NCBI GenBank assembly: GCA_051117555.1
Contig: JBNPEG010000013.1
Location: forward strand, 22,454-86,453
Direction: 5' to 3'
Length of the DNA: 64,000 bases
Source of the DNA: Elainellaceae cyanobacterium
GTDB taxonomy: Bacteria > Cyanobacteriota > Cyanobacteriia > CAZCXK01
The notes under the pieces: generated by a model
The model's database searches: none
Told to the model about the DNA's origin: nothing
Seen by the model: only the letters and a program-made list of their open reading frames with translations
Program-made: the position numbers and the translations under genes
In this document: piece after piece, positions 2,056-60,762 of the stretch
Layout: the number at the start of each line of letters is the position of its first letter
Position numbering within the stretch: position 1 is the first letter of the stretch

Positions 2056-2201
2056 TGTATCAAGACAGCATACAGACTATTCGACTAAAGCCCTACGGGC
2101 TCAGGTTTGTGTGGTGAACCCGCGCGGCGCGAGAGTTCACCACACGTTCAGCGTCCTAACGCGAGAGCGTAAGGCTATAAACAGTGGCTCTGTGTAGGAT
2201 T

Positions 2202-3983: not shown

Positions 3984-4084
3984 AGTGAATTAACCTAAAC
4001 GAGACGTATCTAAAATCATGACTCAGATTATCAACAGGGATTTCTGAGATCTTAAGTCAGATTTGAGAATTCCTGCGGAGAGGT

Positions 4085-31339: not shown

Positions 31340-32428
31340 ATGTCAGTTTTAGCGCCAATTGCCGTTCTTGCACTGTTGATTGTGGTTCACGAGTTGGGGC
31401 ATTTCATGGCAGCCCGGCTCCAAGGAATTCACGTCAACCGGTTTTCGATTGGGTTTGGGCCTGTCCTTTGGAAATATCAAGGCATTGAAACCGAATACGC
31501 GGTTCGCGCCATCCCACTGGGCGGGTTTGTTGGGTTTCCTGACGACGATCCAGATAGTGAAATTCCAGATAATGACCCAGACTTACTGAGAAACCGTCCT
31601 ATTCTAGACCGGGCGATCGTAATCAGTGCGGGAGTCATTGCAAATCTTCTGTTTGCATACCTCGTATTTGTGGCTCAATTTGGTGCGTTGGGGGTGCCGC
31701 AAGCGTCTGAACCGGGTGTCTTAATTCCACAGCTTGCATCGGAGATTAATAGCGTTGCAGCAGAAGCAGGAATTGAGCCCGGAGATGTTGTGCTCAGCGC
31801 CAATGGCAACCCCTTTGATCAGTCTCTTGATGTCATCGAAGATTTCAAGACTACGATTGAGCAGAACGCGGGCAACCCGATTCGGCTTGGCATTCAACGA
31901 GATGATGAACGCCTATCTATTACTATTGTTCCTCGTGAGAGTGCTGACGGTCGCGGACAAATTGGCGTTGGGCTAAGCCATAACGGAACGATTGAATTTC
32001 GACGAGCAAGTAGCATTCTAGAAGTGTTCACGTTGGCAGCAAACGAATTTCAGAATATTTTTGTGGCCATCTTGCAGGGATTCAAGACGCTGATAACAAA
32101 CTTCTCTGAGGTTGCGGGTCAAGTTGCAGGACCAGTTGGTATCGTCGACCAGGGTGCCAAGTTTGCTCGTGCTGACATTACCAGTCTATTTCCGTTTACG
32201 GCTGCAATTAGTATTAACCTAGCAATCATTAATATCTTGCCTCTTCCTGCTCTTGACGGGGGGCAGCTCACCTTCCTGTTAATTGAAGGGCTTCGAGGTA
32301 AGCCTCTCCCCAATCGCATTCAGGAAAATGTTATGCAGACTGGCATTGTTCTATTGCTTGGTTTGGGGGTCTTACTCATTGTTCGGGATACGACTCAGTT
32401 AGATGTGTTTCAAAATATTTTTCGGTGA
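31340..32428 (+). CDS. Site-2 protease (M50, RseP-like) with PDZ domain
   Basis: HELGHF zinc motif in TM1. PDZ-like middle domain. C-terminal LDGG motif. Confidence 0.85.
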   Translation: MSVLAPIAVLALLIVVHELGHFMAARLQGIHVNRFSIGFGPVLWKYQGIETEYAVRAIPLGGFVGFPDDDPDSEIPDNDPDLLRNRPILDRAIVISAGVIANLLFAYLVFVAQFGALGVPQASEPGVLIPQLASEINSVAAEAGIEPGDVVLSANGNPFDQSLDVIEDFKTTIEQNAGNPIRLGIQRDDERLSITIVPRESADGRGQIGVGLSHNGTIEFRRASSILEVFTLAANEFQNIFVAILQGFKTLITNFSEVAGQVAGPVGIVDQGAKFARADITSLFPFTAAISINLAIINILPLPALDGGQLTFLLIEGLRGKPLPNRIQENVMQTGIVLLLGLGVLLIVRDTTQLDVFQNIFR

Positions 32429-35156: not shown

Positions 35157-36065
35157 TTAGCGCACTGCAAACCGACGCACTGCTAGCAAACTGCCCATTA
35201 ACCCCACCGATCCTCCGAGAGCAAGCAATGTTAGCGGAAGTAAAATCGTTTGTTGGGGCGTTAATCTTAGACCATCGGCAAGAAATTGAATGAAATCAGG
35301 CTGCTGAGTCACTAATCGGCTTACAAATCGTTGAATGCCGATGATAAATCCCCACGAAATCATAGCGCCTGCAAGACCAAAGGTGATGCCTTGAAGAATG
35401 AATGGAAAATAAATCCAGAGGGCTGTAGCTCCAACAAGCTGCATTACTTCGATTTCACGCCGTCGAGCCATCACAATCAGTCGAATTGTAGTAGTGATCA
35501 CGGCGATCGCTGTTAACGTGAGGACGGTCGTAATGATAAAGCTGACCCAATTAAGCCCCTGGTTAAGTTGGGCAATCCGTCTGACGGCTTCATCTACATA
35601 TTGCACATCATCGACGCCTTGCATCTGTCTCATCTTTTCTGCTAAGGCAGGCACGACCTCTGAATTAGATGCTTTGACTTTCAGCTCATCCACTAAGGGG
35701 TTGCCATTAAGTTGCTGTGTTGCCCCTGGAATATCAGAGAGGCCCATATCATGAATCAATTCTTCCCATGCCTTTTCCTTAGAAACTGCGGTGACGGCTG
35801 TAACTTCTGGCATTGATTCGACAAATGGCTGCAAATTTTCGGCTCGCACTCCCGCATCTAAATAGACCGATACCTCAAGCTGGCTGCCAAACTGGTTTAG
35901 GAGTTGCTCAAGTTGCCAGGAGGCGTGCAGGCTGATTCCAAATAGAAATAAAAGCACCGTTACCGTGCTCACGGCTGCCCAGTTCATCCATCCGCCCCGC
36001 TTTAGACCCAGTAATGTCTCTCGAAGCAAATAGTCGGCTTTCGTGATAAATTCTAGCAACCGCAC
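35157..36065 (-). CDS. ftsX: Cell-division ABC transporter permease FtsX-like
   Basis: RETLLGLKRGGWMNWAAVSTV N-terminus. Periplasmic domain. IEVMQLVGAT motif. 4 TM. Confidence 0.85.
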   Translation of the reverse strand: MRLLEFITKADYLLRETLLGLKRGGWMNWAAVSTVTVLLFLFGISLHASWQLEQLLNQFGSQLEVSVYLDAGVRAENLQPFVESMPEVTAVTAVSKEKAWEELIHDMGLSDIPGATQQLNGNPLVDELKVKASNSEVVPALAEKMRQMQGVDDVQYVDEAVRRIAQLNQGLNWVSFIITTVLTLTAIAVITTTIRLIVMARRREIEVMQLVGATALWIYFPFILQGITFGLAGAMISWGFIIGIQRFVSRLVTQQPDFIQFLADGLRLTPQQTILLPLTLLALGGSVGLMGSLLAVRRFAVR

Positions 36066-37044: not shown

Positions 37045-37239
37045 GTGACCCCTAAAAGCGGTTTGTTTCTCGCAGGCTCTTGTATAATGGCGATCGCCGC
37101 CGTCGGTTCAGTCTTTGAACTCTCCTCTGGAACACCACAGCTCGGCAGCTCGATTACAACTGTAATTTTGATTCTAAGTATTCCGTTGGCTGGCATTCTT
37201 TTTTATGCGGCTGTGCGAGATGCACGCGCGAATCAGTGA
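37045..37239 (+). CDS. Small hypothetical membrane protein (64 aa, 2 TM)
   Basis: Hydrophobic ORF only. Confidence 0.3.
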   Translation: MTPKSGLFLAGSCIMAIAAVGSVFELSSGTPQLGSSITTVILILSIPLAGILFYAAVRDARANQ

Positions 37240-37369: not shown

Positions 37370-38764
37370 ATGACCGAACCTTATCATCAAACTACAGCTT
37401 TGCTTTGGCGGCTTTTCCCCGGGAGCCGAAAGCGATCAGAATACCACCATCTATCATCTGATAGAGAGTTTACGGTGGGACGCGACCCTCGATGTGATGT
37501 AACCTTCGATTACTTGATTCATAGCGAGGTGTCTCGTCAACACCTAAAAATTTGCTCCTTGCCCAACGCTTTCGGACTGTGGCAAGTTTGTGATCTCAAC
37601 AGTTCAAATGGCACGTATGTTAATGGCGAGCGCGTGCGTGATTGCCGTATTTTGAATCACGGCGATATTATTTCACTCGGTCGTCGAGGTCCTCAATTTA
37701 TCTTTGAATTGCAGTTTTATCAACCGTTTCAGCAAGACCCTTCCCATTTTCTTGACTCTCCTGAACTGACCACAAAAGCATCGACAAGCCGTGCTATCTC
37801 TCGATCTGGATCACGTCCATCTAATCCGTTTAACGCGACTGACCCCGCAACTCTAACTCAGCTCTTCCCTATCATTTCTACAGGGCGCGAGCTGGCGCAA
37901 AAAGCTCACTTGATACCGGTCATCATTACCATTTCGTTTGTTGTTCTGATGTTTGCCGCTGTGGGTCAGACAGAATGGTTTAACTTTTTGTTAGCAGCCT
38001 ACATATCAGGGGCTGCTTATTATTTTGTGTATCGTCTTTGCGATAAGCGAAAGCCATGGTGGCTCATTGTCGCGTCAGCAACGATAACCGCGCTTTTATT
38101 GGTCAGCCCACTTCTTCAAGGATTTTTGTGGTTTTTTCGAGGAGTATTACCTGGGCAACCTCAAAGCGATTCAACCTCAGTTAATCTCATCAGCTTAGTG
38201 TTCCAAATGTTCATTGGAGCTGGGCTGATGGAAGAACTCATTAAGGCAATTCCGGTGCTCTTGGCCTATGTGATTGGGATGACTGTAAAGTCAACTCATC
38301 GTCAAGAGCAAATTGGGATTCGTGAACCTTTAGACGGTATTTTGCTAGGTACAGCCTCGGCAATCGGTTTTACACTAGTCGAGACGTTGGGTCAATACAT
38401 TCCTGCTATGGTCAACAGTGTCGCAGCGGGAGGGGAGACAGGAGATCTGATGGGACTACAACTTCTGATTCCTCGCATTCTTGGCTCAGTCTCAGGGCAC
38501 ATGGCATATAGCGGGTACTTCGGTTATTTCATTGGGCTGAGCGCATTTAAACCCCGCCAACGATGGAAAATTTTAGGCATTGGCTATTTAAGCTCATCGG
38601 TCTTGCATGCCCTCTGGAATGTGATGGGGTTCATTAACCCCATCGTTTTAGCTTTAGTAGGCGTGCTTTCATATGCATTTTTAGGCGCAGCCATTCTTAA
38701 AGCTAGAACGTTTTCTTTACATGAGTCGCAGCAAGGGGATAGTCACTCTACACACATGCCTTAA
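37370..38764 (+). CDS. FHA-domain protein fused to PrsW-family membrane protease domain
   Basis: N-terminal FHA (FTVGRDPRCDVTF...SRQH...NGTYVNGERV). C-terminal 6-8 TM with PrsW-like EELIKAIPV...HALWN blocks. Confidence 0.7.
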   Translation: MTEPYHQTTALLWRLFPGSRKRSEYHHLSSDREFTVGRDPRCDVTFDYLIHSEVSRQHLKICSLPNAFGLWQVCDLNSSNGTYVNGERVRDCRILNHGDIISLGRRGPQFIFELQFYQPFQQDPSHFLDSPELTTKASTSRAISRSGSRPSNPFNATDPATLTQLFPIISTGRELAQKAHLIPVIITISFVVLMFAAVGQTEWFNFLLAAYISGAAYYFVYRLCDKRKPWWLIVASATITALLLVSPLLQGFLWFFRGVLPGQPQSDSTSVNLISLVFQMFIGAGLMEELIKAIPVLLAYVIGMTVKSTHRQEQIGIREPLDGILLGTASAIGFTLVETLGQYIPAMVNSVAAGGETGDLMGLQLLIPRILGSVSGHMAYSGYFGYFIGLSAFKPRQRWKILGIGYLSSSVLHALWNVMGFINPIVLALVGVLSYAFLGAAILKARTFSLHESQQGDSHSTHMP

Positions 38765-38846
38765 CAAGAAAAACGGGATTTAGAGAAAAATGAAATTTAG
38801 AAACATCCCTACTGACCCGCGCAATCACAGCATTAGCGATCGCCAC

Positions 38847-39500
38847 TTACTGCTCTGATGAATTTCTAGCCGGAAGTTGGGCAATGGCATATCGAGCGAT
38901 CGCCAAACTGAGTCGAGCCTGCTCTACACCCGACAAGTCAGTCCAGGCGGCATAGCGGACCGATCGAAGCGCAGCTTCGAGTTGATCTGTGTTCGAGCCT
39001 CTCATTGAGAACGCCAAGGGACGTGCTAAAACCTGCAAATCATCATCCCCCCAATTGGGCAATAGATCATTGACACACCGAACAAGCTGTTCTGCTAAGG
39101 ACAAATTTGCTGTCAATACGCGCTGAGCCTGCTCAGCAATGCTGAGCAAAACCGGTTGAGGGACTCGAGTCCCGAAGCGGGATACTAGCTCGGTGTGAAG
39201 TTCTTGAACTTGCTCAGGCGAGGATGCTGTGTCCCAGATTTGGTCTAATTGAGCGAAAAAGCGTTGACTCCGACTTGCGATGTCCTCTGTTGGCCAATCC
39301 GAAGCAACAGACTGCTCTAATTCTTCGAAATACGCATCTGCTTCTACTTGGCTTGGTTCCCACGGATAGGAAGAATCAACATTAAAGATAAGCTTCACGA
39401 GTTCTAGCTCTGCTTCTGCTTGAAATCGAGAAATCGGGGTGTTTGAGGAATCGCTGTTCATCGGGCTGCTCCTAAAATATGCATCAACCAAACCTGACAT
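38847..39500 (-). CDS. Hypothetical acidic protein, last gene of the CHAT/PP2C cluster
   Basis: 217 aa. No recognisable domain. Lies 61 nt downstream of the CHAT-FHA gene, co-oriented. Confidence 0.5.
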   Translation of the reverse strand: MSGLVDAYFRSSPMNSDSSNTPISRFQAEAELELVKLIFNVDSSYPWEPSQVEADAYFEELEQSVASDWPTEDIASRSQRFFAQLDQIWDTASSPEQVQELHTELVSRFGTRVPQPVLLSIAEQAQRVLTANLSLAEQLVRCVNDLLPNWGDDDLQVLARPLAFSMRGSNTDQLEAALRSVRYAAWTDLSGVEQARLSLAIARYAIAQLPARNSSEQ

Positions 39501-39561
39501 CAGTAGCTACACCATCGCATTAAAGCGTTCCGTAACTCATACGTAATTTACGAAAATTGTT

Positions 39562-41232
39562 TCAGGTTTCAGGGGAGGATGTTGACCCATCGATTACAAA
39601 TTCAAGCACTTGGCTTTGAGAACTTCCAAACTTGAGCTGAGTTTTTGACTGGAGCTGAACCTCTTGCCGATGCACTTTCTGCCATCCGTTGACGCCTAAG
39701 ACCAAGGTGCCAAAGCGAGAGAAATCTCGTAAATAAAATGAGGGTTCCCGTTGCCCTGCTAAAAATGTATCTCGATAAAAAATCTCGGCGTGCTTTCGAG
39801 AAACGCCCGGATCGTGCAAGACCAAATCATTTCCTTCCCATTTTCCGACTCGCATGATGCCACCTTGAATTCGCCATACCTGAGGATGTGAGCCCAGAGA
39901 ACGAATCGATGCAGCCGGAGTGTTGCGACCAATCCAGGTGGATGAATTGACAGGAATCTCAGTGACTCCTTCCGAAAGCGGACGCATTAATTCTCCATTA
40001 AACTCTGGGTGCATATAAAGCACGGGCAGAGTCCAAGCAGGCTGATTAAATTTATAGAGTGTCAACAAATGCTGACGGGCGATCGCCACTGCCCGATCGA
40101 CGGATGACCGATCAACCAGCGCTTGGGCAAAGACGTCGATAAAACTCAATGCTTCTCGGTCGGCAATAGAGTCCCGCATTGCCAGCACGGCTGGAACTCC
40201 GTGGTGAATCAGAACTTCAGCCAGACTGCTGCGCGGAACCGCGTCCTGAGAGACACGATCAGATTGAGCGCCCCAGCAGGCATTGAAAACTGCTAGCTTA
40301 ACTTGACAGCGTGTCAGGACCTGTGCCAATTCCGTGCCATTGATGGTGGCATCCGGTCGAAGAAATAGCAAGCCCCCACTTGGAGCAGGTTCGCCATGAC
40401 CTGAATAGAATAAAACATTATAGCGACGAGTTTCGAGTTGGTCGATGAGTTCTGCTTCAGTGGGTTGCACGAGCGTTGTCACAGAAGACAACATCGGCGA
40501 ATCAAAGTTTTCTCCATGTCGCGATGTTGACTGTTCTAAAATCCCAGTGAGCGTTTCCGCTTCCTGTTCAAGTTCAAGGACGGATTTGGCTGCACCAACA
40601 TCTGCTGAGGGTCTAGCGATCGCTTCATCTTGACCCAAAACCAACAAAATATCGAGGGACTGATCTGATCGTAAGGGGGGTAAGGGATCAACTGCGCTTG
40701 TCGTGCGACTAAATAAAATCTGCTGACTCAGAGAGACGGCTTGTTTACCCGGCTCCGGCTGCATGATTTCCCAGGGAAGGCTAATCAAATTTGGATCTCG
40801 AATCTCCAGGCGTAATCGCAGGGGTTTACCCTGACCAATTGCGATTCCCTGGCTTTGGCGAAAGCTGCCTTGGATCGGTCCATCAACGAGCCATTGCCAA
40901 AGGCTTACTCCTAAATACTGCATCAGGCGACTGCTGTAACTCGTCGTCTGCCCCGATGGCATCATATCTGTACCATTGAAGACAGGCGGCAGGACAGCAA
41001 AGGCATCCATGTTGAAGGCAACCTGAGACATGCCATCAGAGTTTTGAGTTGTAGCGAACATGCTCTGCCATGCTTGCCAAGCCTGTGTTAGCGAATCAGT
41101 CCACAAACGGTCGTAGTGAACATAGCCCTCTGGTGAAGGGGCACGCAACACCCAGATTGCGTAATGGTCTGGATCGGCAGCTTGTAAGCGAGCGATCGCC
41201 AGGCTTAAGCAGGGAATCTCAAACAACGGCAT
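39562..41232 (-). CDS. CHAT-domain (caspase-like) protease fused to C-terminal FHA domain
   Basis: His/Cys dyad context YSGHG ... FNACWGA. C-terminal FHA (GKWEGNDLVLHDPGVSRKHAEI...GTLVLGVNGW). Confidence 0.75.
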   Translation of the reverse strand: MPLFEIPCLSLAIARLQAADPDHYAIWVLRAPSPEGYVHYDRLWTDSLTQAWQAWQSMFATTQNSDGMSQVAFNMDAFAVLPPVFNGTDMMPSGQTTSYSSRLMQYLGVSLWQWLVDGPIQGSFRQSQGIAIGQGKPLRLRLEIRDPNLISLPWEIMQPEPGKQAVSLSQQILFSRTTSAVDPLPPLRSDQSLDILLVLGQDEAIARPSADVGAAKSVLELEQEAETLTGILEQSTSRHGENFDSPMLSSVTTLVQPTEAELIDQLETRRYNVLFYSGHGEPAPSGGLLFLRPDATINGTELAQVLTRCQVKLAVFNACWGAQSDRVSQDAVPRSSLAEVLIHHGVPAVLAMRDSIADREALSFIDVFAQALVDRSSVDRAVAIARQHLLTLYKFNQPAWTLPVLYMHPEFNGELMRPLSEGVTEIPVNSSTWIGRNTPAASIRSLGSHPQVWRIQGGIMRVGKWEGNDLVLHDPGVSRKHAEIFYRDTFLAGQREPSFYLRDFSRFGTLVLGVNGWQKVHRQEVQLQSKTQLKFGSSQSQVLEFVIDGSTSSPET

Positions 41233-41336
41233 GTATGTACAACGTAAACCTCATGAATTCGCGTATTTACTTAAAAGTCTATCGGGTCTGATAGCAGAGG
41301 TGAAAGTTAAAAGAGTACCAAAATCATGGATCGATG

Positions 41337-43892
41337 TTAACGACATTCACCGAGTTGGGATGCAGTCAGATTTGGGTTAGGCAATACAAGTGGAGACACT
41401 TGAGTTTCTTGAATCCACCCAACATCACCGGGTTCTAATAATCGAGGTGATAAAGGAACTGAAGCACTTGGATTGGGTTCTGGAGAATCGGACGAGGATG
41501 ACACACTATTGTCAGGAACATCTGTCAAACCCGGGACAGAGCATACTTTCAGACGAACCCATCGCCCTTGCTCTTGAAATTCCTGCTTTCCTAATACCTG
41601 TAAAATACTCCCTGCTGGAATCGTACCCGCAACGAGAATCTCACGATTATCTACCGAATCGCCAGACTGGGATGGCAATGAATTGGTCGCATTGGGAGAA
41701 ATTGGGCGCCTCGAATGAGATGCCGATTCGCTCGGTGCTGCGGGAAATGAGCGATCGCCAGGATGGGGAACCAATTGCAATGGCTGGTCTAATGTTAAAT
41801 CATCTGCCCCGGTTGATCGGCTCACCTGGATTAGAGAACCGACATCAATAGAGATAGGACTGACAGTGGGGCTGGGATCAGAATCAGGCGGTAGTGTAAC
41901 CTCTGATACTGGGTCTTGAGAGATCTGACGGATATTAAATAATGAGCTGAGCCGATTGCCCAACGAGGGGATCAAGAGATAAATCAATGTTCCGCCCAAC
42001 CCCACCAGTAGAATAATTCCAAGCAGCAGGGGAGCGACTCGTTGCCGTCTAGATGGCGTCGATGAAATCACTTGAGTAGTGTCTGCAGACGAAACGGGCT
42101 CTTTAGTCGGAGACTCGGATTGAAACTCGGTTTGAGCAGATGGAGGCGATTGAATTTGGGTGGGCTGGGATGCCTGCACCCGAGTTTGGGGTGAGACGGA
42201 CGTTGGCTGACCAACCTGGTCAGACGGAAGGGCGATCGCCCGCGTTTGCCTCGGTTGATAGTAAATCAGCCCGACCGTGACATTATCGTAGCCATTGTGG
42301 GTATTGGCGATCGCAATCAGCTGTTGAGCGACGTCAGCCAAATTATATTTGTTCTCAATCGCAGGCAAAATAACGGTTTCCCAGAATGTCTCGACGCGAT
42401 CGTTATCGCTTAGACCATCTGAACAAAAGAGAAAAATGCTGTCTTCATCAACCAGGAAACGTTGAACCGTTGGATGGAGTGAAACAGATGGCCCCATTCC
42501 CAGCGCCTGCACTAGTGATCCTGAGCTGGGGTGCTGGAGGGCGCTACGGTAGGTGTTGTAGCCCAGTCGAACCTCTCGGGAGGCAATGTCATCATCCTGA
42601 GTAATCTGATGACATCCCCGGTGAGTAATCCAGTAGGCTCGACTGTCGCCGATATGGGTGACATACAGCTCAGACCCCAACATCAAACCCATGACAAGGG
42701 TTGTTCCCATCCGCTCTCGCTCGCGTCGATGCTGCGCGTCGTTATGTTGGCTAATCAAGTCATTCGCCACGCACACGCTCGTCGACAACTCTAGCTGCAG
42801 TTGATCGGAGGCTAAGGTTTCAAATTCAATGTGCTCTAGGCGCTGTTTGATCGACTCAATTGCCAAGTGGGAGGCTACGTCTCCGCCTTGATGCCCGCCA
42901 ATGCCGTCACACACAATCAGAAAAGCGTCTTCATGACTGACATCAGAGCGATCGCTAATTGAATATGTCTTTTGGGTGCCACTTGGGGGGTAACATGCGT
43001 CCTCATTTTGGTGGCGACTTGGGCCCTGATCGGTATAGCTGACAACCTCTACCTGTTGAGATTGAGACTGTTCTGCAATCCTCACCGCCTGATCGAGTCG
43101 ATCGATCAATTGCTCAGGCTGATGAATTTGCCCTCGGATCATCAGTTGGCAAAGCGAGATTAAAAACGATGAAATCTCAGGCTCAGCGTCTTTTGCCAAG
43201 CTCAACCAGCGATGCCCAAGTTGGTCTAGGGACGGAGCCGGATTGCCCATATCGGATCGCAGTTCGAGCAATCGGACAATGGATCCCTCAACTCGCAATA
43301 AATCTGGAATTAGAACACTCGATGCCGCCTGTTCGTCAATGAGAGGTTGCCATAATCGGGCAATTTGCCAGAGCCAGTTTAATTGACGCATTGCGGAGGC
43401 GCTTAGCCACGCATCAACCAGAGACGGCAGACATTGCACATCCGATGTGCGGGATTTTGACACGCTGGTAGTATCTGAGTCGTCAAATCTCTGATGCTGT
43501 GTTGATGGCTGAGTAGACTTAGATAAACTCTCTGCAATAGGGGCATGCTCCAAGACGATAATCTCACCCGCTGCGTCTGATTCAGATTCGATTGGGATGG
43601 CTCCATATATCTGAGGAACATGTAATTGGTAGGGAGAGAGCCGCAAATATGGAAGCAGAGCATAAGAGATTTCACGGGGCTCATCCGGTGGTAACCCCGG
43701 TTTAGTATCCAAAAAAATGCGATCGCCCTTATACAAATAGCGATTTAAAAAAATTTCACCAGCAGCACACGCCCTTCCCTCCAAATTGAGCGCCCAAAGG
43801 TATCGCTTCACGAGAGGGGTTTGACATTTTTGACAGAATCTGCTGCTCTCTGAGTTAGGAGCTTGGCACGTATAGTTAGAACAATAGAGCAT
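41337..43892 (-). CDS. Multi-domain PPM/PP2C Ser/Thr phosphatase: N-terminal double CxxC zinc ribbon, unknown middle domain, PP2C, one TM, C-terminal SH3-like domain
   Basis: CSNYTCQ...CQKCQT zinc ribbon. PP2C motifs DGIGGHQGG, HIGDSRAYW and SDGLSDN. TM LLLGIILLVGLGGTLIYLLI. Confidence 0.75.
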   Translation of the reverse strand: MLYCSNYTCQAPNSESSRFCQKCQTPLVKRYLWALNLEGRACAAGEIFLNRYLYKGDRIFLDTKPGLPPDEPREISYALLPYLRLSPYQLHVPQIYGAIPIESESDAAGEIIVLEHAPIAESLSKSTQPSTQHQRFDDSDTTSVSKSRTSDVQCLPSLVDAWLSASAMRQLNWLWQIARLWQPLIDEQAASSVLIPDLLRVEGSIVRLLELRSDMGNPAPSLDQLGHRWLSLAKDAEPEISSFLISLCQLMIRGQIHQPEQLIDRLDQAVRIAEQSQSQQVEVVSYTDQGPSRHQNEDACYPPSGTQKTYSISDRSDVSHEDAFLIVCDGIGGHQGGDVASHLAIESIKQRLEHIEFETLASDQLQLELSTSVCVANDLISQHNDAQHRRERERMGTTLVMGLMLGSELYVTHIGDSRAYWITHRGCHQITQDDDIASREVRLGYNTYRSALQHPSSGSLVQALGMGPSVSLHPTVQRFLVDEDSIFLFCSDGLSDNDRVETFWETVILPAIENKYNLADVAQQLIAIANTHNGYDNVTVGLIYYQPRQTRAIALPSDQVGQPTSVSPQTRVQASQPTQIQSPPSAQTEFQSESPTKEPVSSADTTQVISSTPSRRQRVAPLLLGIILLVGLGGTLIYLLIPSLGNRLSSLFNIRQISQDPVSEVTLPPDSDPSPTVSPISIDVGSLIQVSRSTGADDLTLDQPLQLVPHPGDRSFPAAPSESASHSRRPISPNATNSLPSQSGDSVDNREILVAGTIPAGSILQVLGKQEFQEQGRWVRLKVCSVPGLTDVPDNSVSSSSDSPEPNPSASVPLSPRLLEPGDVGWIQETQVSPLVLPNPNLTASQLGECR

Positions 43893-44198
43893 GGCTGTGG
43901 CACTTTGCCTGAAGCCAGAAATATAAGGGGGATGGTTTTACCAGAATAGCTTAGTAGACTACCTGTATAGAACTATTGCTCCCAAATCAACCAATCAATT
44001 TGAAGCGGCTGCCCTTTCAACCATAGAATCCATCAAGCGTCGGGGCTGGTTAACGGGCACAGTCCCAGACACGGATTGCAAATTCCCCTATCTGGCCATT
44101 TGCAGACTGAGATGCTTCTCAGACTTAAGTGGCGATTTTGAACATAATCTCTCCAAACAAGTTCTCCAGGTTGATCAGAAGAGCATCTCAAAAGATCG

Positions 44199-44552
44199 TT
44201 ATTCTAAGTGGGAATCGTCACTACCTGAAACGCGAGGTAATCCAAAGCTGTAATTGCGGACTCTACTCTTTAGGTTATAAGCCAGCTTCCCATCATGGAG
44301 GAGCGATCGCACGAAGTGTTCTAAATCTGAACCAATCCTGCGCAAGTTGTAGTCAGTTAGTTCAGCACCTTCATAGATATCAACAAGCTCGTCAAACTTT
44401 CGGTAAACGTCTTGAAGAGCCTCATCGTTCCAATTCAACTCATTATCTGGATCAACATCTAGGGTTAGCTTATCTACGCTAGGAACGAGCTCATCTTTCT
44501 CAAGCTCAGCGCTATAAAGGCGGATATGACGGGTTGTAGACTTGAGCAGCAT
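44199..44552 (-). CDS. Hypothetical acidic protein upstream of PP2C gene
   Basis: 117 aa. No known family. Chosen over the overlapping + strand ORF on composition. Confidence 0.4.
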   Translation of the reverse strand: MLLKSTTRHIRLYSAELEKDELVPSVDKLTLDVDPDNELNWNDEALQDVYRKFDELVDIYEGAELTDYNLRRIGSDLEHFVRSLLHDGKLAYNLKSRVRNYSFGLPRVSGSDDSHLE

Positions 44553-44983: not shown

Positions 44984-45676
44984 ATGAGCTCAAAAAATTT
45001 ACCTCGAATTGCCAAGGGTGCACTCGCTATCGCGATGCTCTTGATGCTGTTTTCTCTATGGCGCAATGCGTCTCGCCTTATGGGAAATTTCAGCTCGGTG
45101 TTCAATCTACAGACATCTGAGCCAGCCATTGATCCGCGATCGCTCGTCATCGACCAGGTTCGAGGTGTGAGTGAGCTGACAACGGCTGTTTATGCAATGG
45201 AATCGGTTGTTCCCGCAAGTCGCGATCGCACCCTCGGAAATTACGTAATCGGTCGCACCACACTGCTTTACATTGCCTATGGAGAGGTTCGGGCAGGAGT
45301 TGATCTCAGTGAAATTAATGATGGAGATATCCAAATCAATGACGAAGCACTTGCCCTACGCCTTCCTCCGCCCGAAATCTTAGACAGCAAAATCGATGTT
45401 AACCGCTCCCGAGTCTATGATTATGATCGCGGATTTCTTGGGCTAGGCCCCGATTCAGCGCCTCAGCTCCAAGAACTTGCACAACGCGAAACACTCCAGC
45501 GTATCGTCGAAGCTGCGTGTGATAATGGGGTTCTCGGTGAAGCAAATGAACGTGCCGAATCCGTCGTTACCCAACTTTTGACAACTGCTGGTTATCAAAC
45601 GATCACAATCGAAACTCAACCTCCCCCCCCTGATACCTGTGAAGTTTCTGGTTCTGTTGCGTTAGATAGCCAGTAA
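44984..45676 (+). CDS. DUF4230-family membrane-anchored protein
   Basis: 230 aa. N-terminal TM. Assigned from memory of the family only. PPPP near the C-terminus. Confidence 0.5.
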   Translation: MSSKNLPRIAKGALAIAMLLMLFSLWRNASRLMGNFSSVFNLQTSEPAIDPRSLVIDQVRGVSELTTAVYAMESVVPASRDRTLGNYVIGRTTLLYIAYGEVRAGVDLSEINDGDIQINDEALALRLPPPEILDSKIDVNRSRVYDYDRGFLGLGPDSAPQLQELAQRETLQRIVEAACDNGVLGEANERAESVVTQLLTTAGYQTITIETQPPPPDTCEVSGSVALDSQ

Positions 45677-45953: not shown

Positions 45954-48728
45954 ATGCCTAGAGATCGTGCAAAAAATTTCCTAAAACGAGCAAAAAAAGT
46001 TACTCTAAATAATTCTTCAAGCAGATTCAAAGACTTCATTGGCGATGGAGATGATGACGATTTGTATCGGGTTAGAGTAACAAATCGCAGCAGTTTTGAC
46101 CTTAAACTTTCCGGACTAAAGTCCAATGCTGATGTTGAAATCTACACATTAAAAGGCTCGAGGCGGAAAGTCCTTAGACAGATTGGTACAACAGATTTTA
46201 GCGATTTATCCAAGCAAGATATTCGAAAAAATCTTCAGATGCTGACTCGTTCTCGCAAAGGCGGTAAGCGAAACGAAGCCGTTTCAACCGAACTCGATGC
46301 AGGTGAATATTATGTTCGGGTTAAGCCTCGCAACAGTAAGCGTCACAGTACGAAATATCAATTGCTCTTATCTGCCGAGGATATCGTTGTCCCCGCACCC
46401 ATTGGGGGGAGCAACCTCCCTGATGGGACGACTACTCCTGATGTCACCGCTCCTCCAACTAGCTCACCCCCCCCTGCCACATCTCCTACTGACACGGGTA
46501 TCACCGTTCCACCGTCTGATGGAAACAACACGCCTTTAGACGCTCAGTTGATTCAGGTTGACTTTAGAACTAGACAATATACAGGATATGTCGGAGACAC
46601 GGATACGGATGACTATTTCAAATTTTCACTTCAAAATGGTGGAGATTTTACTCTGACCATGTTTGGCTTGAGCGCTGATGCGGACGTCGAATTGCTAGGC
46701 AGTGACGGTCAAATTCTCTCCCTTGATACTCAAAACCGTTCAGCACTTTCAGCGCTCATCGGCACTAACAATGAGACGATTAACTATCGTTTGGATGTCG
46801 GCGGAGATTATCTCATCCGAGTTTATCAAGGGATTGCAGGGCAAAATACCGATTACACGTTTGATGTCGCAGTTGTTCCAGGCCCTGATGGTGCAGGAAA
46901 TACCCCTGAAACTGCCCGTGTTCTGCGCGGCACCGATGGGGAAAGGGGGTTTGTCAACGAGTTCCAAAATACAACACTCACTGAGTTTAAACGCTTTTCA
47001 GATTTTGTGGGAGGAGCTGATTTAGCTGACTACTACAAAATTACGTTTGAAGCAAACGATTTCTTCTTGAGCCTCGATTTGAATGACCTGCAAGCTGATC
47101 TCGATATCGAACTCCTTGTAGAAAAAGGCGGTACGTTGCAAGCGGTTGCGAACGGTAAGTCTGAGAGGTCAGGCACAGCATCAGAAGCATTTGGTGGAAG
47201 CTTTGCACCTGGAACTTACTATCTAAAGGTGGCACCCAAGAGCGGAAATCCTGATATTGGCTCTTTTTACAATCTAGACATATCGGGCGTGTTGCTTGAT
47301 GGCATCCCCGCTTTGACGCGCGATATCAAAATTGATACATCAGGATCAAGCAGCCCCTCATCCGACGTCAGAGAGATTACCGGTGTTACCAGCGGTGAGG
47401 TTTATTTCGTTGCGAATGACGGCTCCGGTGAGGCAATTTGGGTGAGCGACGGAACGTTTGATACAACGAATAAGTTAGACACAGGTGGCAAAACCTTCAC
47501 CCAAATCTCAAACTTAACAGATGTTGGTGGCGTTATTTTCTTTGCAGCCGATGGTGGGGATGGCAATGGCGTCGAGCTTTGGCAGGTTGACGGTGGTGCA
47601 ATCAGTCTAGTTGCCAATATCAACGAAAATACGGCGACTACCGGCGGTAATGCATCGTTTATCTCCTCTAACCCAAGAAATCTTGCTAATTTCAACGGTA
47701 CGCTGTACTTTATAGCTGCATCTGATGGGGTCAATGAACAGCTCTATAAGTACGCACCGAGCGATGCAGCCCCGCAAGCCATTACGACTCAAGATGTCTC
47801 AAGCGTTGCTGAACTCACTGATTTTGATGGCACGCTTTACTTCACGGCGACTAATAATATCAATGGACTTCAGCTTTATCGTATCAATAGCAGTGGTGCT
47901 GCTGAAATCGTCGATATCCCCGTTCCGACCAGCCAAGGAGATCCGAGTACCTTTCCGACAGACTTGACAGTCGTTGAAAAAGTGGTCGGAGGAGCTGTTG
48001 AAAAAACTCTCTACTTCACGGCGGTTGGTAATTCGGGTGGTACTGACACAGGACGCGAAATCTGGAAGATTACCAGTCCTACTGGCACTGCTCAGATGGT
48101 GGAAGAAATTCGTTCTGGATTTGAAAGTGCTGAACCGATGGAGCTAATCGCGTTGAACGATACGCTATTCTTCGTGGCTCAACGCTCTGCTGGTGGTAAT
48201 CAAACCGAGCTTTGGAAGCTAGAGGGAGATACTCCCGTGATGGTGACGAATAGCACTGGAGTAGTAGGCTATCAACCTGACCAACTGACTGTTGTTGGCA
48301 ACACGCTGTATTTCACGGCTGAAGACAGCAATGGCCGCGAACTCTGGAAAACTGATGGAACGACCTTTTCCCAGGTTTTGGATATTAATCTAGGTTCTGG
48401 CAGTTCGACGCCACAAAACCTCATTGCTGTAGGCGATACCCTATACTTCACCGCAGATAATGGCGTCACGGATGGACCGGATGCGATTGGGCGCGAACTC
48501 TGGAAGACAGACGGAACAGCAGAAAACACTGTCAATGTTGATGACATTTGGGTTGGTACTCAAAGCTCGATTCCGAGCAATCCAGAGTTTGTCAACGTTA
48601 ATGGACGACTCTTCTTTACGGCGAGTAACGGTAACGAAACGGTAACTACAATGGTTAACGGACAAGATGTTGTTGTTGGGAAGGGGGTTGAGCTATGGGT
48701 TGTCGGTCAGGAGATTCCTGCCTTATAA
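45954..48728 (+). CDS. Large repeat protein: four PPC (pre-peptidase C-terminal) domains followed by about seven ELWxxDGT repeats; no signal peptide
   Basis: 924 aa. SD gaggaa 7 nt upstream of ATG. Repeated D(Y)YKF...ADLD(V/I)ELL PPC units. RELWKTDGT, TELWKLEGDT and VELWQVDGG repeats (TIGR04534-like). Confidence 0.7.
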   Translation: MPRDRAKNFLKRAKKVTLNNSSSRFKDFIGDGDDDDLYRVRVTNRSSFDLKLSGLKSNADVEIYTLKGSRRKVLRQIGTTDFSDLSKQDIRKNLQMLTRSRKGGKRNEAVSTELDAGEYYVRVKPRNSKRHSTKYQLLLSAEDIVVPAPIGGSNLPDGTTTPDVTAPPTSSPPPATSPTDTGITVPPSDGNNTPLDAQLIQVDFRTRQYTGYVGDTDTDDYFKFSLQNGGDFTLTMFGLSADADVELLGSDGQILSLDTQNRSALSALIGTNNETINYRLDVGGDYLIRVYQGIAGQNTDYTFDVAVVPGPDGAGNTPETARVLRGTDGERGFVNEFQNTTLTEFKRFSDFVGGADLADYYKITFEANDFFLSLDLNDLQADLDIELLVEKGGTLQAVANGKSERSGTASEAFGGSFAPGTYYLKVAPKSGNPDIGSFYNLDISGVLLDGIPALTRDIKIDTSGSSSPSSDVREITGVTSGEVYFVANDGSGEAIWVSDGTFDTTNKLDTGGKTFTQISNLTDVGGVIFFAADGGDGNGVELWQVDGGAISLVANINENTATTGGNASFISSNPRNLANFNGTLYFIAASDGVNEQLYKYAPSDAAPQAITTQDVSSVAELTDFDGTLYFTATNNINGLQLYRINSSGAAEIVDIPVPTSQGDPSTFPTDLTVVEKVVGGAVEKTLYFTAVGNSGGTDTGREIWKITSPTGTAQMVEEIRSGFESAEPMELIALNDTLFFVAQRSAGGNQTELWKLEGDTPVMVTNSTGVVGYQPDQLTVVGNTLYFTAEDSNGRELWKTDGTTFSQVLDINLGSGSSTPQNLIAVGDTLYFTADNGVTDGPDAIGRELWKTDGTAENTVNVDDIWVGTQSSIPSNPEFVNVNGRLFFTASNGNETVTTMVNGQDVVVGKGVELWVVGQEIPAL

Positions 48729-54567: not shown

Positions 54568-56379
54568 CTAGAAATTTTGCTGGACGTATTCTAGAATACC
54601 ACGGGCGATCGCCTGAGCCATGCGACTTTGAAACCCAGGATCGGCTAGTAGGGGAGCGTCTTGGCCTCCCGTGACGAATCCGGTTTCCAATAGCACTGCG
54701 GGCATAGATGTATTGCGAATGACATAAAATCGAGCCCGCCGAACACCGCGATCGGGGCGTCCGGTCAGTTGCACCATGTTGCGGTGAATAATCTGCGCCA
54801 TGCGATACCCCCGATCGGAATAGTAATAGGTTTCGATGCCATTGACATCAGGGCGGCTCAAATTAATCGCATTGGCATGAATACTGATAAAAATATCTGC
54901 ATTCACCCGCTCAGCGATTTGCACGCGAGGTTCTAAGTCAAGATCGCGATCGTCTTGGCGCGTCATGACAACTGACATCCCCTGCTGCTGAAGGATTTGC
55001 ACGACTTGCCGTGAAATGGGTAAGACTACATCTTTTTCTCGCAAGCCACCAATGCCAACCGCTCCTGGATCAGGCCCCCCATGCCCTGGATCAATGACAA
55101 TCACCACTTGACTATTCGGTATCGTGGAGGGCACAGTAGGCAGCGTGACCGGATTTCCAGGCGAATAGACAGGCGGCGTTGGCGTAACGGGAACCGATTG
55201 CTGAAGCGGCAGCGCCAGGAGTTGCTGACTCGGTTGGCTAATTTCGCCAATCTGCGCCCTCGCCGCAGGCTGTAGCGAAATAATGACCGTATCGTTTTCT
55301 TCCTGGCGCAATCGCACTCGCAAAAGGGGGCTATTTGCACCAAGGCGTGGATCCGCAATCTGGTCTGCTAAGCGAGCATTAGGAATTGTAATTTGATAAT
55401 CTGTTGTAGCTCGATCCCAACCGCCGGTAAAGGTCTCTATAGGGCGATCGGCTCGAATTAAAAGCTGAGTTCCGCCGTTTGCCAACTCGATGGACTGAAT
55501 CGTTGCGGGTTGTTGAACTGGCTCAGCGGCTGTGCGAGGAATCTGGAGAGAACTGGGAGGGCGATTTTGGATTGGTTCTCCTCCTTGAGGAATTACGACA
55601 ACCCCGCCAAACGTGCTCACCGTAGCCTGTAGATCTACCTCTCGATCTGCCAAGTCCAGCGTTACCCTAGCCCGTGGGGGCGACTCGTCTTCTTGACTCA
55701 GCTCAATACGATTGACTCCAAAGCTATCGAGGTTCAGCTCTCGCTGAGCGAGTTGGCTGGACAACGCCGTATCTTCAAAATCAATCGTGACTTGTTCTTG
55801 TCGGCGGTTCCGCTCAACCTCGATCTCAGGCGTTGCGCCGCTCGTCCGCACAAAAATACCATCTGGCGTAACCCGGATACCCTCTAAAACCGTTGCTGCT
55901 CCGGGTACGATCGGTGATGTGTCTCCCGATGTAACCATTGCTAGAGGTGAAGACTCGTCTGTTTCTGCTACTGATTCATCAAGCGGCTGAGGATCTGGAA
56001 TTTCGACCACCCACTGAGTTGGAGTCGCGCCACGCACCCGGACTTGCTGCGGATCAATGGTATAGCCTTCATTAAGCTCAACCACAATTCGAGTCGTTTG
56101 CGCATCAAATTGTCCTACGCGGACTTCTCGAATCGCCCCTTCTCCGGCTTGATTCACCAATGGCTGACCAAAACTCGTTCCGGGCAGGTCAATCACCAAG
56201 CGCGTTGGATTGGGAATGAGTTGGGCTCTAGGTTGGACGGCGGTATCGGTCGTAAAAATCAGGCGATTTTCATCCGCATTGAAACGCCAAAATTGCAATC
56301 GTGCTGCCTCAGCAGGAGAGGACAACAGCAAAACGCCTATAACACCCAATAAACTTGGGAAAATCCCGTGCAATCTCAC
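54568..56379 (-). CDS. amiC: N-acetylmuramoyl-L-alanine amidase (AmiC-like) with N-terminal AMIN domains
   Basis: Signal peptide. AMIN-like ARLQFWRFNADENRLIFTTD. C-terminal Amidase_3 (IDPGHGG...SIHANA). Confidence 0.85.
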   Translation of the reverse strand: MRLHGIFPSLLGVIGVLLLSSPAEAARLQFWRFNADENRLIFTTDTAVQPRAQLIPNPTRLVIDLPGTSFGQPLVNQAGEGAIREVRVGQFDAQTTRIVVELNEGYTIDPQQVRVRGATPTQWVVEIPDPQPLDESVAETDESSPLAMVTSGDTSPIVPGAATVLEGIRVTPDGIFVRTSGATPEIEVERNRRQEQVTIDFEDTALSSQLAQRELNLDSFGVNRIELSQEDESPPRARVTLDLADREVDLQATVSTFGGVVVIPQGGEPIQNRPPSSLQIPRTAAEPVQQPATIQSIELANGGTQLLIRADRPIETFTGGWDRATTDYQITIPNARLADQIADPRLGANSPLLRVRLRQEENDTVIISLQPAARAQIGEISQPSQQLLALPLQQSVPVTPTPPVYSPGNPVTLPTVPSTIPNSQVVIVIDPGHGGPDPGAVGIGGLREKDVVLPISRQVVQILQQQGMSVVMTRQDDRDLDLEPRVQIAERVNADIFISIHANAINLSRPDVNGIETYYYSDRGYRMAQIIHRNMVQLTGRPDRGVRRARFYVIRNTSMPAVLLETGFVTGGQDAPLLADPGFQSRMAQAIARGILEYVQQNF

Positions 56380-58045: not shown

Positions 58046-58993
58046 CTATATTTCAGCAGGAAATCCGGCAATTTCAGTGACCGTATAAAGCGGGCGAGCT
58101 TTCACTTCTTCATAGATACGCCCGATATATTCGCCTAAAATGCCGATACAAATGAGCTGGACTGCCCCAAAAAAGAGAATTGCCATGATGATTGTGGCAT
58201 AGCCCGTCAATGGCGAGTTGGGTTGAAGAAAGCGCCAATAGACAACTAGCACCATCATCAAGAGAGCAACGGCTGCTGAAAATAAGCCGATATACGTTGC
58301 AATGCGCAGCGGAATTTTTGAAAAGGAAACCAAGCTATCGATCGCCAGCGCAAGGGATTTGCCAAACGTATATTTAACGGGTCCGGCGTATCGAGGCGAA
58401 CGATTATAGCGCACGGCTGTTTGTCGAAAGCCAATCCAGGCGCGTAATCCTCGAATATATCGATTGCGTTCAGGCATCGCGTTTAGTGCATCCACGACCC
58501 GCCGATCCATGAGACAAAAATCTCCGGTGTCCGTAGGAATGTCTACATCAGCGAGTCGCTGGAGGAGGCGATAAAACAAATGAGCGGTGAGACGTTTGAA
58601 CCAATTCTCCCGCTGCCGAGTAGTCCGCTGAGCATACACAACCTGATATCCGTTTTGCCACTGATGCAGCATATCTGGAATTAGCTCTGGAGGATCTTGC
58701 AAGTCGGCATCTAGAACGACCACAATCTGACCCCGTGCAAAATTAAGTCCAGCCGTGACAGCCGTTTGATGACCGAAGTTGCGGGCAAAATTGAGATAGC
58801 AAACCCTGGAATCGTGGTGTCTCAATTCTCGAATAATGAGCAAGGAGCGATCGCCACTGCCGTCGTTAACGAAGATAAATTCAGCGATTCCCTCTAATCG
58901 ATTGATGACATCGCAAAGCCGTCGATAGAGTTCGTGCAATGAGTCTTCTTCGTTATAGACCGGGATCACGAGAGAATAGCTCACCTCACTCAT
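58046..58993 (-). CDS. GT2-family polyprenyl-phosphate glycosyltransferase (DPM1/ArnC-like)
   Basis: [10 protein letters not shown]...VNDGSGD. DAD motif. C-terminal TM helices. Confidence 0.8.
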
Positions 58994-60762
58994 GGATGGG
59001 GCCCCGCGACATTGTGCCAGCGGGTCAGTAAGGGAGCTGCATTCAGCAATGTTTGAGTATACGGGTGTTGAGGATTCGAGAAAATTTCATCGGTAGTTCC
59101 GTATTCAACAATTTGACCCGCTTGCATCACTGCAATGCGATCGCAAAAGTATCGGGCAACCCAAAGATCGTGGGTGATAAACAAATAGGTCAGGTCGAAC
59201 TCTTGCTTTAGCTCTAGCATGAGTTCTAACACTTGACTCTGAATGCTGGCATCGAGCATGCTCACGGGTTCATCGCAGATAAGCAATTTAGGTCGAGTGA
59301 TGAGCGCCCGGGCGATCGCCACTCGCTGCTGCTGCCCGCCGGAAAGCTCATTTGGATAGCGATGATAAAACTCATCCGGTGGCGTCAACCCAACTCGCTC
59401 TAGCATGGCGTTCACGTGGGCAGCGATGTTGTCTCCGTGTGCCAACTGATGAATCAGCAATGGACTGGCAATGCCTTGTCCCACAGTCATGAGTGGATTT
59501 AAGCAGGCATGGGGATCTTGAAAAATCATCTGCATCTGCCGACGCTGTCGCCGCATTTCATCTGGCGATAACGCTGTTAGGTCTTGTTGGAGAAACTCGA
59601 CGGTGCCTGATGTGGGGTGTACGAGCCGCAAAATTGTCCGCGATAATGTGCTTTTCCCACAGCCCGACTCACCCACCAAGCCCAAAATCTCACCCGGAAA
59701 AATATCAAGGCTGACATCATCGACGGCTTTAATTGTGCGATCGCTCGTCTGTGAAAAGAGCCGAGCGATAAAATTTTGCTCTAAGGTGTAATGCTGCTTG
59801 AGATGGCGAATGCTCAGAAGCGGTGGAGAAGACGATGAAATGGATGAATTAGCTGAGCGAATTTGAGGTGACGATGGGGCGATCGCTCCATCACGCGCTC
59901 TGCTGCCTTCTCTGCCCTCGCTGCCGCTTTCTCCGCGTTGGAGGTGTAGTGCGGCGGATAACAGCGATTGGGTATAGGAATGTTGGGGGTTGGTGAGGAC
60001 AGACTCGACCGTTCCAGTTTCAACGATCTTACCGTCATACATGACAGCAATGCGATCGCAATATTCGCCGACGAGCGTCAAATCATGGGAGATTAACATC
60101 AACGCCATCTGACGCTCCCGGCAGAGGCGGGTCAGTTCCTTTAAAATCTGTGCCGAAACCGTGACATCTAAGCTAGTCGTGGGCTCGTCTGCAACAATCA
60201 ACTTTGGATTTAGAAGTAACGCTAGGGCGATCGCCACGCGCTGCCGCATCCCTCCGCTAAACTCGTGAGGATATTGTCCCCACCGACTTGCCGGAATATT
60301 CACAGCATCTAAAATCTCAATGCCACGCTGCCTGGCATCTTGGCGAGAAAGGTGAGGGTCATGAGCGAGCAGAGTCTCAATGCAGTGGTTGCCAATGGTC
60401 ATCAGCGGGTCGAGGCGCGTCATTGGGTCTTGAAAAATAAGGGCGATCGCTTCTCCGCGAAATGTGCGGAGCGCATCAGCCGATAGATCAAAAACCGATT
60501 GCCCCTTAAATAAAACCGTTCCCTCAATGTGAGTGGATGACGGCAATAGTCGCATCGCAGCGCGTCCGAGCGTGGATTTTCCGCAGCCTGATTCTCCAAC
60601 TAATCCAAGCCTTTCTCCAGGCATCAGAGTTAGCGAGACATCATCGACTGCCCAAGTCTGAGGTGACGCAGCGACTGACTGCTTAGCAGATGACAGATTT
60701 TGAGGACTCGTTTGCGGATAAGCGACCCGAACGTGTTCGATGCAAAAGAGAGCATTGCTCAT
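58990..60762 (-). CDS. ABC transporter ATP-binding protein with two fused ATPase domains (Dpp/Opp D+F type)
   Basis: 590 aa. Two Walker A (GESGCGKST x2). Two LSGG signatures. Opp/Dpp C-terminal oligopeptide-ABC extension. 4-nt overlap with the GT2 gene. Confidence 0.85.

Follow-up and report, generated by a model that had tools for sequence, protein, structure and literature searches.

Between positions 37370 and 44552 of the 64,000-nucleotide stretch analysed here (contig JBNPEG010000013.1 of an Elainellaceae cyanobacterium; the whole stretch is hereafter the window), five open reading frames (ORFs) mark a locus that is real, conserved and home to a module not described before. Its firm core is a pair of genes on the minus strand, one encoding a 556-residue protein that combines a HetF-like CHAT protease domain with a divergent FHA domain (CHAT-FHA, 39562..41232), and the other a 204-residue protein directly downstream (the partner, 38847..39461). 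Upstream on the same strand lie the genes for a multidomain phosphatase of 851 residues (41337..43892) and for NdhM, a subunit of cyanobacterial and plastid NDH-1 (44199..44552), while the gene for an FHA-PrsW membrane protease of 464 residues (37370..38764, plus strand) converges on the end of the partner gene. With moderate confidence, we interpret the region as a vertically inherited cyanobacterial module of regulatory proteolysis, analogous to HetF-PatU3 and not a defence system, in which proteolysis of the HetF type would be joined to phospho-signalling of the Hanks type. The module is probably under Ser/Thr phospho-control, and cell division or envelope homeostasis is its likeliest physiological role. 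A sequence-only reading of the same DNA had proposed one integrated system of two proteases gated by phospho-threonine and reset by a PP2C phosphatase, with no kinase of its own; some of that proposal is carried forward here and some is not.

The CHAT-FHA protease and its partner

The fusion of CHAT and FHA domains that the sequence-only reading had recognised is borne out by Pfam, with matches to CHAT (PF12770, of the clan CD cysteine proteases; 5.9e-22, 78.9 bits where the cutoff is 24) and to FHA (2e-12, 47.8 bits against 20.7). The caspase-fold domain spans residues 109-396 (about 40045-40908, minus strand) and the FHA domain residues 461-536 (39625-39852, minus strand). A catalytic dyad is predicted at His279, within YxGHG, and Cys319, within FNACWG; GHG and FNACWG are invariant in the homologue alignment, and the His and Cys motifs are present in 118 of 120 homologues, these motif counts being taken from the best 120 of more than 1400. 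All of the best 120 share the CHAT-FHA architecture. The NCBIfam model of HetF matches the CHAT domain over about 320 residues (1.3e-48), which makes the domain HetF-like; the protein itself is not HetF, because its 166 bits compare with an equivalog cutoff of 1200 (NF045509) and only the CHAT part aligns. No transmembrane (TM) segment is predicted, so that the protein appears soluble, and its C-terminus is an FHA domain and not a TPR domain. In a profile search against PDB sequences the CHAT domain matched nothing and the FHA part alone found matches.

The partner is an acidic protein (isoelectric point 4.4), predicted to be all-alpha, with no enzymatic motif. Homologue alignment places its start at Met14 (39461), giving 204 residues instead of the 217 of the full ORF, which extends to 39500; the annotation of a near-identical metagenome-assembled genome already begins at the same Met14. 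No family in Pfam, NCBIfam or PADLOC accounts for it, and on sequence comparison it is an orphan family without a name: a profile search of 1.84 billion representatives returned 297 clusters, all of the partner family itself, and the few named members are hypothetical proteins from cyanobacteria. Among the 150 of the 297 clusters listed, lengths run from 118 to 287 residues, mostly about 190-230, and none is long enough for a multidomain fusion. The AF2 (AlphaFold2) model shows helices only and, at a confidence (pLDDT) of 54, is too poor for a fold search. Conservation is strongest at the C-terminus, which reads DLQVLARPxAxxMR ... EQARLSLAIARY, and four Arg residues (Arg160, Arg167, Arg196 and Arg203) are invariant in the homologue alignment.

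Evidence that these two genes belong together comes from their neighbourhoods in other genomes. One genome per species was scanned, yielding 565 candidate loci with a CHAT-FHA relative. The best 80 of these were retrieved together with 10 kb on either side, and neighbours were counted by tblastn of the window proteins against the 80 loci, using only loci with enough flank. In 76 of 77 loci the gene that immediately follows CHAT-FHA encodes the partner. The pair is kept even where all other neighbours differ, as in Microcoleus (L075), locus L081, Neosynechococcus (L083) and Thermocoleostomius (L084); in Microcoleus vaginatus an oxidoreductase gene flanks it on one side and a glycosyltransferase gene on the other, in Neosynechococcus it is preceded by a PP2C of 630 residues and has no PrsW, and in Thermocoleostomius it has PrsW and no PP2C. 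Linkage of CHAT-FHA to its partner is beyond chance, and this is the only functional linkage in the region that synteny by itself proves.

CHAT-FHA is also highly conserved in sequence. Median identity is 61% across 78 species loci, with values of 55-75% across many cyanobacterial families and about 60% in Elainellaceae, Leptolyngbyaceae, Oculatellaceae, Coleofasciculaceae, Desertifilum, Microcoleus, Chroococcidiopsis, Waterburya and Neosynechococcus. As far as sequence comparison can tell, such conservation is what one expects of a core gene passed on by vertical descent. Among the closest 120 homologues and the best 80 loci we recognised no orthologue from Synechocystis, Synechococcus elongatus or Anabaena. 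The nearest public sequences are almost those of the window: P0121 matches the partner, and P0241 the phosphatase, at 100% identity, and the CHAT-FHA protein of locus L001 is 92% identical.

The FHA domain of the protease departs from the canonical form. At the position of the GR-motif Arg, 67 of 120 homologues have Arg and the window protein has Lys; at that of the NG-motif Asn, 107 of 120 have Tyr, Phe or Trp instead. Alignment with canonical FHA domains indicates that the SxxH motif is kept and that an invariant Arg stands just before the lost Asn. The domain accordingly lacks the canonical phospho-threonine pocket, as defined by the Arg of GR and the Asn of NG, and a structure search with the single sequence matched no solved structure. 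Its best profile match is the FHA domain of Dun1, which likewise reads S-R-N-G-T; we presume that the corresponding Arg of Dun1 aids the binding of a second phosphate, and treat this as a lead only. Because the pocket is non-canonical, phospho-gating of the CHAT protease is not established, and only one half of the idea of two phospho-threonine-gated proteases, that concerning PrsW, has a canonical reader behind it. Just upstream of the FHA domain, at residues ~422-427, the linker carries a motif x-T-E-[IL]-P that is kept in at least 101 of 120 homologues and is a candidate phospho-acceptor of the protein, judged on its sequence. In some homologues, those of Microcoleus type (P0117 and P0110; loci L055-L057, L063-L076 and L081), the FHA domain contains a low-complexity insert of 25-55 residues, which follows the S-R-Y-G-T strand and precedes the one after it.

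The phosphatase and its pseudokinase domain

The description of the 851-residue protein as zinc ribbon, PP2C and TM helix has stood up well and can now be extended. A four-Cys zinc ribbon at the N-terminus (43809-43892, minus strand, as for all parts of this protein) is followed by a kinase-fold domain (residues ~30-280, about 43053-43805), a PP2C domain (residues 285-545, about 42258-43040), a linker rich in Ser, Pro and Gln, a single TM helix (residues 623-641, 41970-42026) and a conserved extracytoplasmic C-terminal module (about 41340-41630). The zinc ribbon gives weak matches to Pfam DZR and to the NCBIfam model '4Cys_prefix_kin'. The deposited annotation, from the Prokaryotic Genome Annotation Pipeline, starts at Val28 and is 824 residues long, which cuts the ribbon off; since its four Cys are invariant in 30 of 30 homologues, the 851-residue reading is the correct one.

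For the phosphatase domain itself, Pfam PP2C_2 (6.9e-10, 39.2 bits) and PP2C (5.5e-09, 36.5 bits) are both matched above their cutoffs, and NCBIfam Stp1 is matched at 5e-47. The match to PRK14559 phosphatases (1.3e-76) falls in two stretches and, at 258.7 bits, lies below that model's cutoff of 374. The metal-binding residues D298, D329, D492 and D536 are the same in all 30 sequences compared, and the motifs NEDA, CDGIGG, SDGLSD and DNVT are found in most of 120 homologues. As these metal-binding motifs are conserved, the domain is probably active. The Anabaena PP2C All1758 (Tom & Callahan 2012) is a possible orthologue.

Residues ~30-280 adopt a kinase-like fold in the predicted structure, and the best Foldseek match is Mycobacterium tuberculosis PknG. 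Neither Pfam Pkinase nor a sequence profile run against PDB detects a kinase here. An active Hanks-type enzyme would be recognised by a Gly-rich loop, the Lys of VAIK and the Asp residues of HRD and DFG; across 30 homologues there is no invariant Lys, no HRD and no DFG. Because the catalytic Lys, HRD and DFG are not conserved, the modelled domain is classed as a pseudokinase. It was missed by the sequence-only reading, which had called the locus kinase-less. The wider claim holds for active enzymes: a Hanks catalytic-loop pattern searched in six frames across the 64-kb window found nothing, Pfam scans of 33 window ORFs found no Pkinase domain, and a kinase motif within 10 kb was seen in 1 of 80 related loci.

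The proposed SH3-like C-terminus was not recovered by Pfam, either with the whole protein or with the C-terminal 187 residues alone (E<=1). This region is conserved all the same, apart from an insert that varies: it shows the pattern G-S-[IV]-L-x-V-L ... W-[VI]-x-L-x-V-C ... G-W-I, which includes a pair of invariant Cys and is compatible with a small beta module. The Neosynechococcus PP2C of 630 residues is too short to contain the TM helix and the C-terminal module.

The phosphatase gene lies upstream of CHAT-FHA on the same strand in 37 of 63 loci, and several Microcoleus genomes have no PP2C gene at this position. This compares with 28 of 53 for NdhM, and the two are usually present or absent together (both in 26 loci, neither in 20, PP2C only in 3, NdhM only in 1). 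In favour of membership, the phosphatase is on the same strand as the pair, 104 bp upstream of CHAT-FHA, and stays directly upstream in several loci that have lost NdhM (L006, L021, L025, L080 and Neosynechococcus L083). We regard it as a probable member of the module. In L083 (Neosynechococcus sphagnicola) the stretch 6877-7875, just upstream of the trio of PP2C, CHAT-FHA and partner, holds a STAS gene, resembling anti-sigma antagonists, and short HATPase_c_2 fragments, RsbW-like and possibly from a broken gene; together they hint at partner-switching signalling nearby.

The sequence-only reading had all the minus-strand genes from 44552 to 38847 in one operon and bounded the cluster with two small acidic proteins of no known kind. 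The downstream one, our partner, is indeed without a family; the upstream one (44199..44552) is NdhM (Pfam, 3.2e-51), functionally unrelated and separated from the phosphatase by 306 bp. With gaps of 104 bp between phosphatase and CHAT-FHA and 61 bp between CHAT-FHA and partner, an operon limited to these three genes is plausible. Consensus scans for promoters and terminators gave background levels only and were uninformative, and an Rfam scan found no RNA element in the window.

The FHA-PrsW protease

The second fusion protein is as first described, with matches to Pfam FHA (PF00498, 5.6e-19) and PrsW-protease (PF13367, 2e-35, 122.6 bits against a cutoff of 23.5). A cytoplasmic FHA domain (37472-37681, plus strand) is joined by a linker rich in Ser and Thr to a multi-pass glutamic protease domain of the PrsW/CPBP type (38051-38686, plus strand) with the motifs EELIK and HALWN; TM segments begin at residue ~181. 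The FHA domain aligns to those of GarA and OdhI with GR, SxxH (SRQH) and SxNG (SSNGT) intact and is canonical, its best NCBIfam match being FhaB/FipA, and both the pocket motifs and the EExxK and HxxxN motifs of the protease are kept in 27 of 29 homologues. The protein shares PF13367 and these two protease motifs with Bacillus subtilis PrsW, the site-1 protease of the anti-sigma factor RsiW, but that enzyme has no N-terminal cytoplasmic FHA domain, and the model for the B. subtilis type (NF033739) gives 24.7 bits where 225 are required. Pfam scans of the window ORFs revealed no gene for a sigma or anti-sigma factor beside FHA-PrsW.

FHA-PrsW occurs, convergently oriented, near CHAT-FHA in 30 of 64 loci. 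It travels with def and with an ORF of 64 residues that lies between def and FHA-PrsW (37045-37239, plus strand), has two predicted TM helices and belongs to no family: all three are present in 29 loci and absent from 31. In L040 the 64-residue ORF and def adjoin the partner without PrsW. We describe FHA-PrsW as a frequent neighbour of the pair and a possible member of the module. PP2C and FHA-PrsW keep their place beside the pair no more faithfully than do NdhM and def, which are unrelated genes; because they travel with these genes, inheritance accounts for their location no less well than function. Each of the four possible combinations of PP2C and FHA-PrsW is seen (21, 8, 5 and 19 loci); of the 53 loci in which both flanks are visible, 21 have the full four-gene set. 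The claim of one integrated system thus divides into a part that is firm, the CHAT-FHA/partner pair, and a part that is not, since PP2C and PrsW follow NdhM and def.

The 64-residue ORF is itself conserved (66-94% identity) and is found in every locus with PrsW and def (29 of 29); it could encode a small membrane protein that works with PrsW, or it could merely belong to the def block. Five kb upstream of the FHA-PrsW gene lies a gene for an RseP-like M50 site-2 protease with a PDZ domain (window 31340-32428, plus strand), seen in only 4 loci because it falls outside most of the fetched flanks. In B. subtilis, PrsW at site 1 and the M50 protease RasP at site 2 act sequentially.

Comparison with known systems

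The closest functional analogue and closest characterised CHAT relative is HetF, a regulator of development and division and not a defence effector. HetF is a proven, Arg-specific protease that cleaves the small protein PatU3 after Arg117 and couples division to heterocyst differentiation (PMC9457339); it is part of the divisome, interacts with FtsI, and is built of a CHAT domain, a TM segment and a periplasmic TPR domain (PMC8406250). The system described here resembles HetF-PatU3 of Anabaena sp. PCC 7120 in that a HetF-type CHAT domain, with its catalytic His and Cys, goes together with a single, specific small protein that belongs to no family otherwise known, and PatU3 is cut after an Arg where the partner has four that are invariant. 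It differs in that the protease is soluble and ends in FHA whereas HetF has TM and TPR regions, and in that patU3 is not next to hetF whereas the partner adjoins CHAT-FHA almost without exception. HetF is, to our knowledge, the only cyanobacterial CHAT protease with a known substrate.

Combinations of FHA proteins with PP2C have analogues in other bacteria, namely the actinobacterial cell-division cluster FhaA/FhaB(FipA)-PstP-RodA-PbpA-PknA-PknB and the Pseudomonas PpkA-PppA-Fha1 system (PMC6213207). Actinobacterial PstP also has the same order of PP2C, TM helix and extracellular domain as the phosphatase here. However, these clusters include their own active Hanks kinases, while none lies within 64 kb here. 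Two further features set the present case apart: its FHA domains are parts of proteases, and a pseudokinase domain is built into its phosphatase. The four-Cys zinc module directly before a kinase-fold domain is shared with the rubredoxin-kinase PknG and with the cyanobacterial '4-Cys prefix' Ser/Thr kinases, which we take to be SpkB-type; in contrast to these, the phosphatase appears from its sequence to fuse a dead kinase domain to an active PP2C. The sequence-only reading knew of no described system with this combination, and our searches of the full-text literature agree: no paper on this cluster was found with CHAT, FHA and cyanobacteria, with PrsW and FHA, with pseudokinase, PP2C and cyanobacteria, or with HetF and FHA.

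Proposed mechanism and alternatives

In proposing how the module works, we take the pair as its core, a soluble HetF-like CHAT cysteine protease with a divergent FHA domain and a dedicated, acidic and helical partner encoded downstream. As HetF is the closest functional analogue, the partner may be a substrate, an inhibitor or an adaptor of the protease, and its four invariant Arg would be candidate cleavage sites. In some 60% of lineages the membrane phosphatase precedes the pair, probably within one transcription unit; it would sense an envelope or periplasmic cue, its dead kinase domain might dock a real Hanks kinase encoded elsewhere, or the substrates of that kinase, and its PP2C domain would strip the phospho-threonine marks read by the FHA domain or domains, with T-E-[IL]-P as a candidate mark. 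FHA-PrsW, as a canonical reader, may listen to the same kinase. A more detailed version may be put forward tentatively, and we think it somewhat unlikely to hold in full: that the transmembrane pseudokinase-PP2C protein is a sensor controlling a CHAT protease paralogous to HetF through the atypical FHA domain of that protease, that the protease cleaves the partner and so regulates division, filament integrity or cell fate, and that FHA-PrsW is a second, membrane output of the same kinase. The atypical FHA domain might then bind the T-E-[IL]-P linker of its own protein, much as the FHA domains of GarA and OdhI recognise the phosphorylated N-terminus of the same molecule.

Several observations weigh against the interpretation of the locus as a phospho-controlled proteolytic module. 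Lacking the canonical Arg and Asn, the FHA domain of the CHAT protein may, on its sequence, bind no phospho-threonine at all. The homologue alignment shows no invariant Thr in the partner, so that it does not readily suggest itself as an FHA ligand; the AF2 model of the partner, as noted, is poor. The pseudokinase assignment comes from a predicted structure with modest Foldseek TM-scores (0.36-0.46), and the operon is deduced from strand and spacing only. The adjacency of PP2C follows that of NdhM, an unrelated gene (26 of 29), and could be explained by inherited synteny. Finally, no paper found in the full-text literature searched combines CHAT, FHA and cyanobacteria.

The synteny data lend themselves to a narrower explanation, in which only the CHAT-FHA/partner pair is functional and PP2C and FHA-PrsW serve unrelated pathways, being neighbours through descent of an ancestral block NdhM-PP2C-CHAT-unknown-PrsW-64aa-def. 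The near-complete agreement of PP2C with NdhM, the perfect agreement of PrsW with def and the 64-residue ORF, the occurrence of every PP2C/PrsW combination, the opposite strand of PrsW together with its absence from L040, and the dissimilarity of the two FHA domains, one canonical and one divergent, are all what it would predict. It sits less easily with the persistence of PP2C directly upstream and on the same strand where NdhM is gone, and with the classic functional partnership of PP2C phosphatases with FHA readers, established for M. tuberculosis FhaA/FhaB-PstP and Pseudomonas PppA-Fha1; three adjoining Ser/Thr-signalling proteins would also be improbable by chance, though this argument is weakened by the many such genes of large-genome cyanobacteria. 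We consider this explanation possible, if rather doubtful.

The remaining alternatives concern effectors of defence or death. That the four genes form a single kinase-less system, both proteases being switched through FHA by Thr phosphorylation and reset by PP2C, and acting as a stress, defence or cell-death effector, is in our estimation improbable. Every catalytic domain that it names is present with what appear from sequence to be intact active sites; Pfam has upheld the FHA, CHAT and PrsW assignments, and the genes do co-occur in related genomes; the four-gene set recurs (21 of 53), the FHA domain of PrsW is canonical, and CHAT proteases are effectors in some defence systems, one of which, SAVED_CHAT, gave a weak PADLOC match (E 0.003). 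Yet PADLOC-DB 2.0 returned no significant match (best E 0.003-0.008, 12-15 bits), the FHA pocket of the CHAT protein is non-canonical, the linkage of PrsW cannot be told from synteny, and HetF, the closest characterised relative, regulates development and division. A defence role is moreover unsupported because PADLOC is negative, the flanks are housekeeping genes (Aat, FtsX, Def, NdhM, DUF4230, ferrochelatase-like, RNase E, DprA, aspartate kinase and AmiC-like amidase), GC content is uniform across the window and CHAT-FHA is conserved like a core gene. The locus looks like vertically inherited cell regulation and not phage defence, and the defence framing of the sequence-only reading is not retained. 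Least probable, and in our view very unlikely, is a 'toxin-antidote'-like pair in which the partner silences a potentially lethal CHAT protease until release, leading to programmed cell death in filaments. An obligate two-gene linkage and a small, acidic, helical partner with no enzymatic motif would suit such an arrangement, and caspase-fold proteases are tied to cell death elsewhere, but the protease-first gene order is atypical of toxin-antitoxin and immunity pairs, and conservation is high and uniform without signs of mobility; no mobile-element genes were found nearby in Pfam scans of the window ORFs.

CHAT-FHA represents a second HetF-like protease, spread over many cyanobacterial lineages, unicellular ones such as Neosynechococcus among them. 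The attraction of the module lies in its compactness and in the fusion of pseudokinase and phosphatase, every functional step being so far inferred; it offers a testable system for the control of regulated proteolysis by Ser/Thr phosphorylation in cyanobacteria and for the role of bacterial pseudokinase domains. The analysis also corrects the public annotation, in which the zinc ribbon of the phosphatase is truncated and the orphan family of the partner has no name.

Flanking genes

Two genes of division and septal-wall metabolism lie in the vicinity: ftsX (window 35157-36065, minus strand), two genes from PrsW and present in 13 of 80 loci, and a gene for an AmiC-like protein with AMIN and Amidase_3 domains (window 54568-56379, minus strand), 10 kb away. 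Given the role of HetF in the divisome their presence is suggestive, and the linkage is weak.

On the far side of NdhM, a DUF4230 protein (44984-45676, plus strand) adjoins a 924-residue protein (45954-48728, plus strand) with three PPC (pre-peptidase C-terminal) domains and beta-propeller-like repeats. Both belong to a conserved block in 9-16 related loci, the large protein at only about 30% identity. Near the start of the window is an unusual fourfold array of tandem paralogous SBP_bac_5 solute-binding genes, each encoding 593-615 residues (window 241-7688, minus strand), and an oligopeptide-type ABC ATPase is encoded at window 58990-60762.

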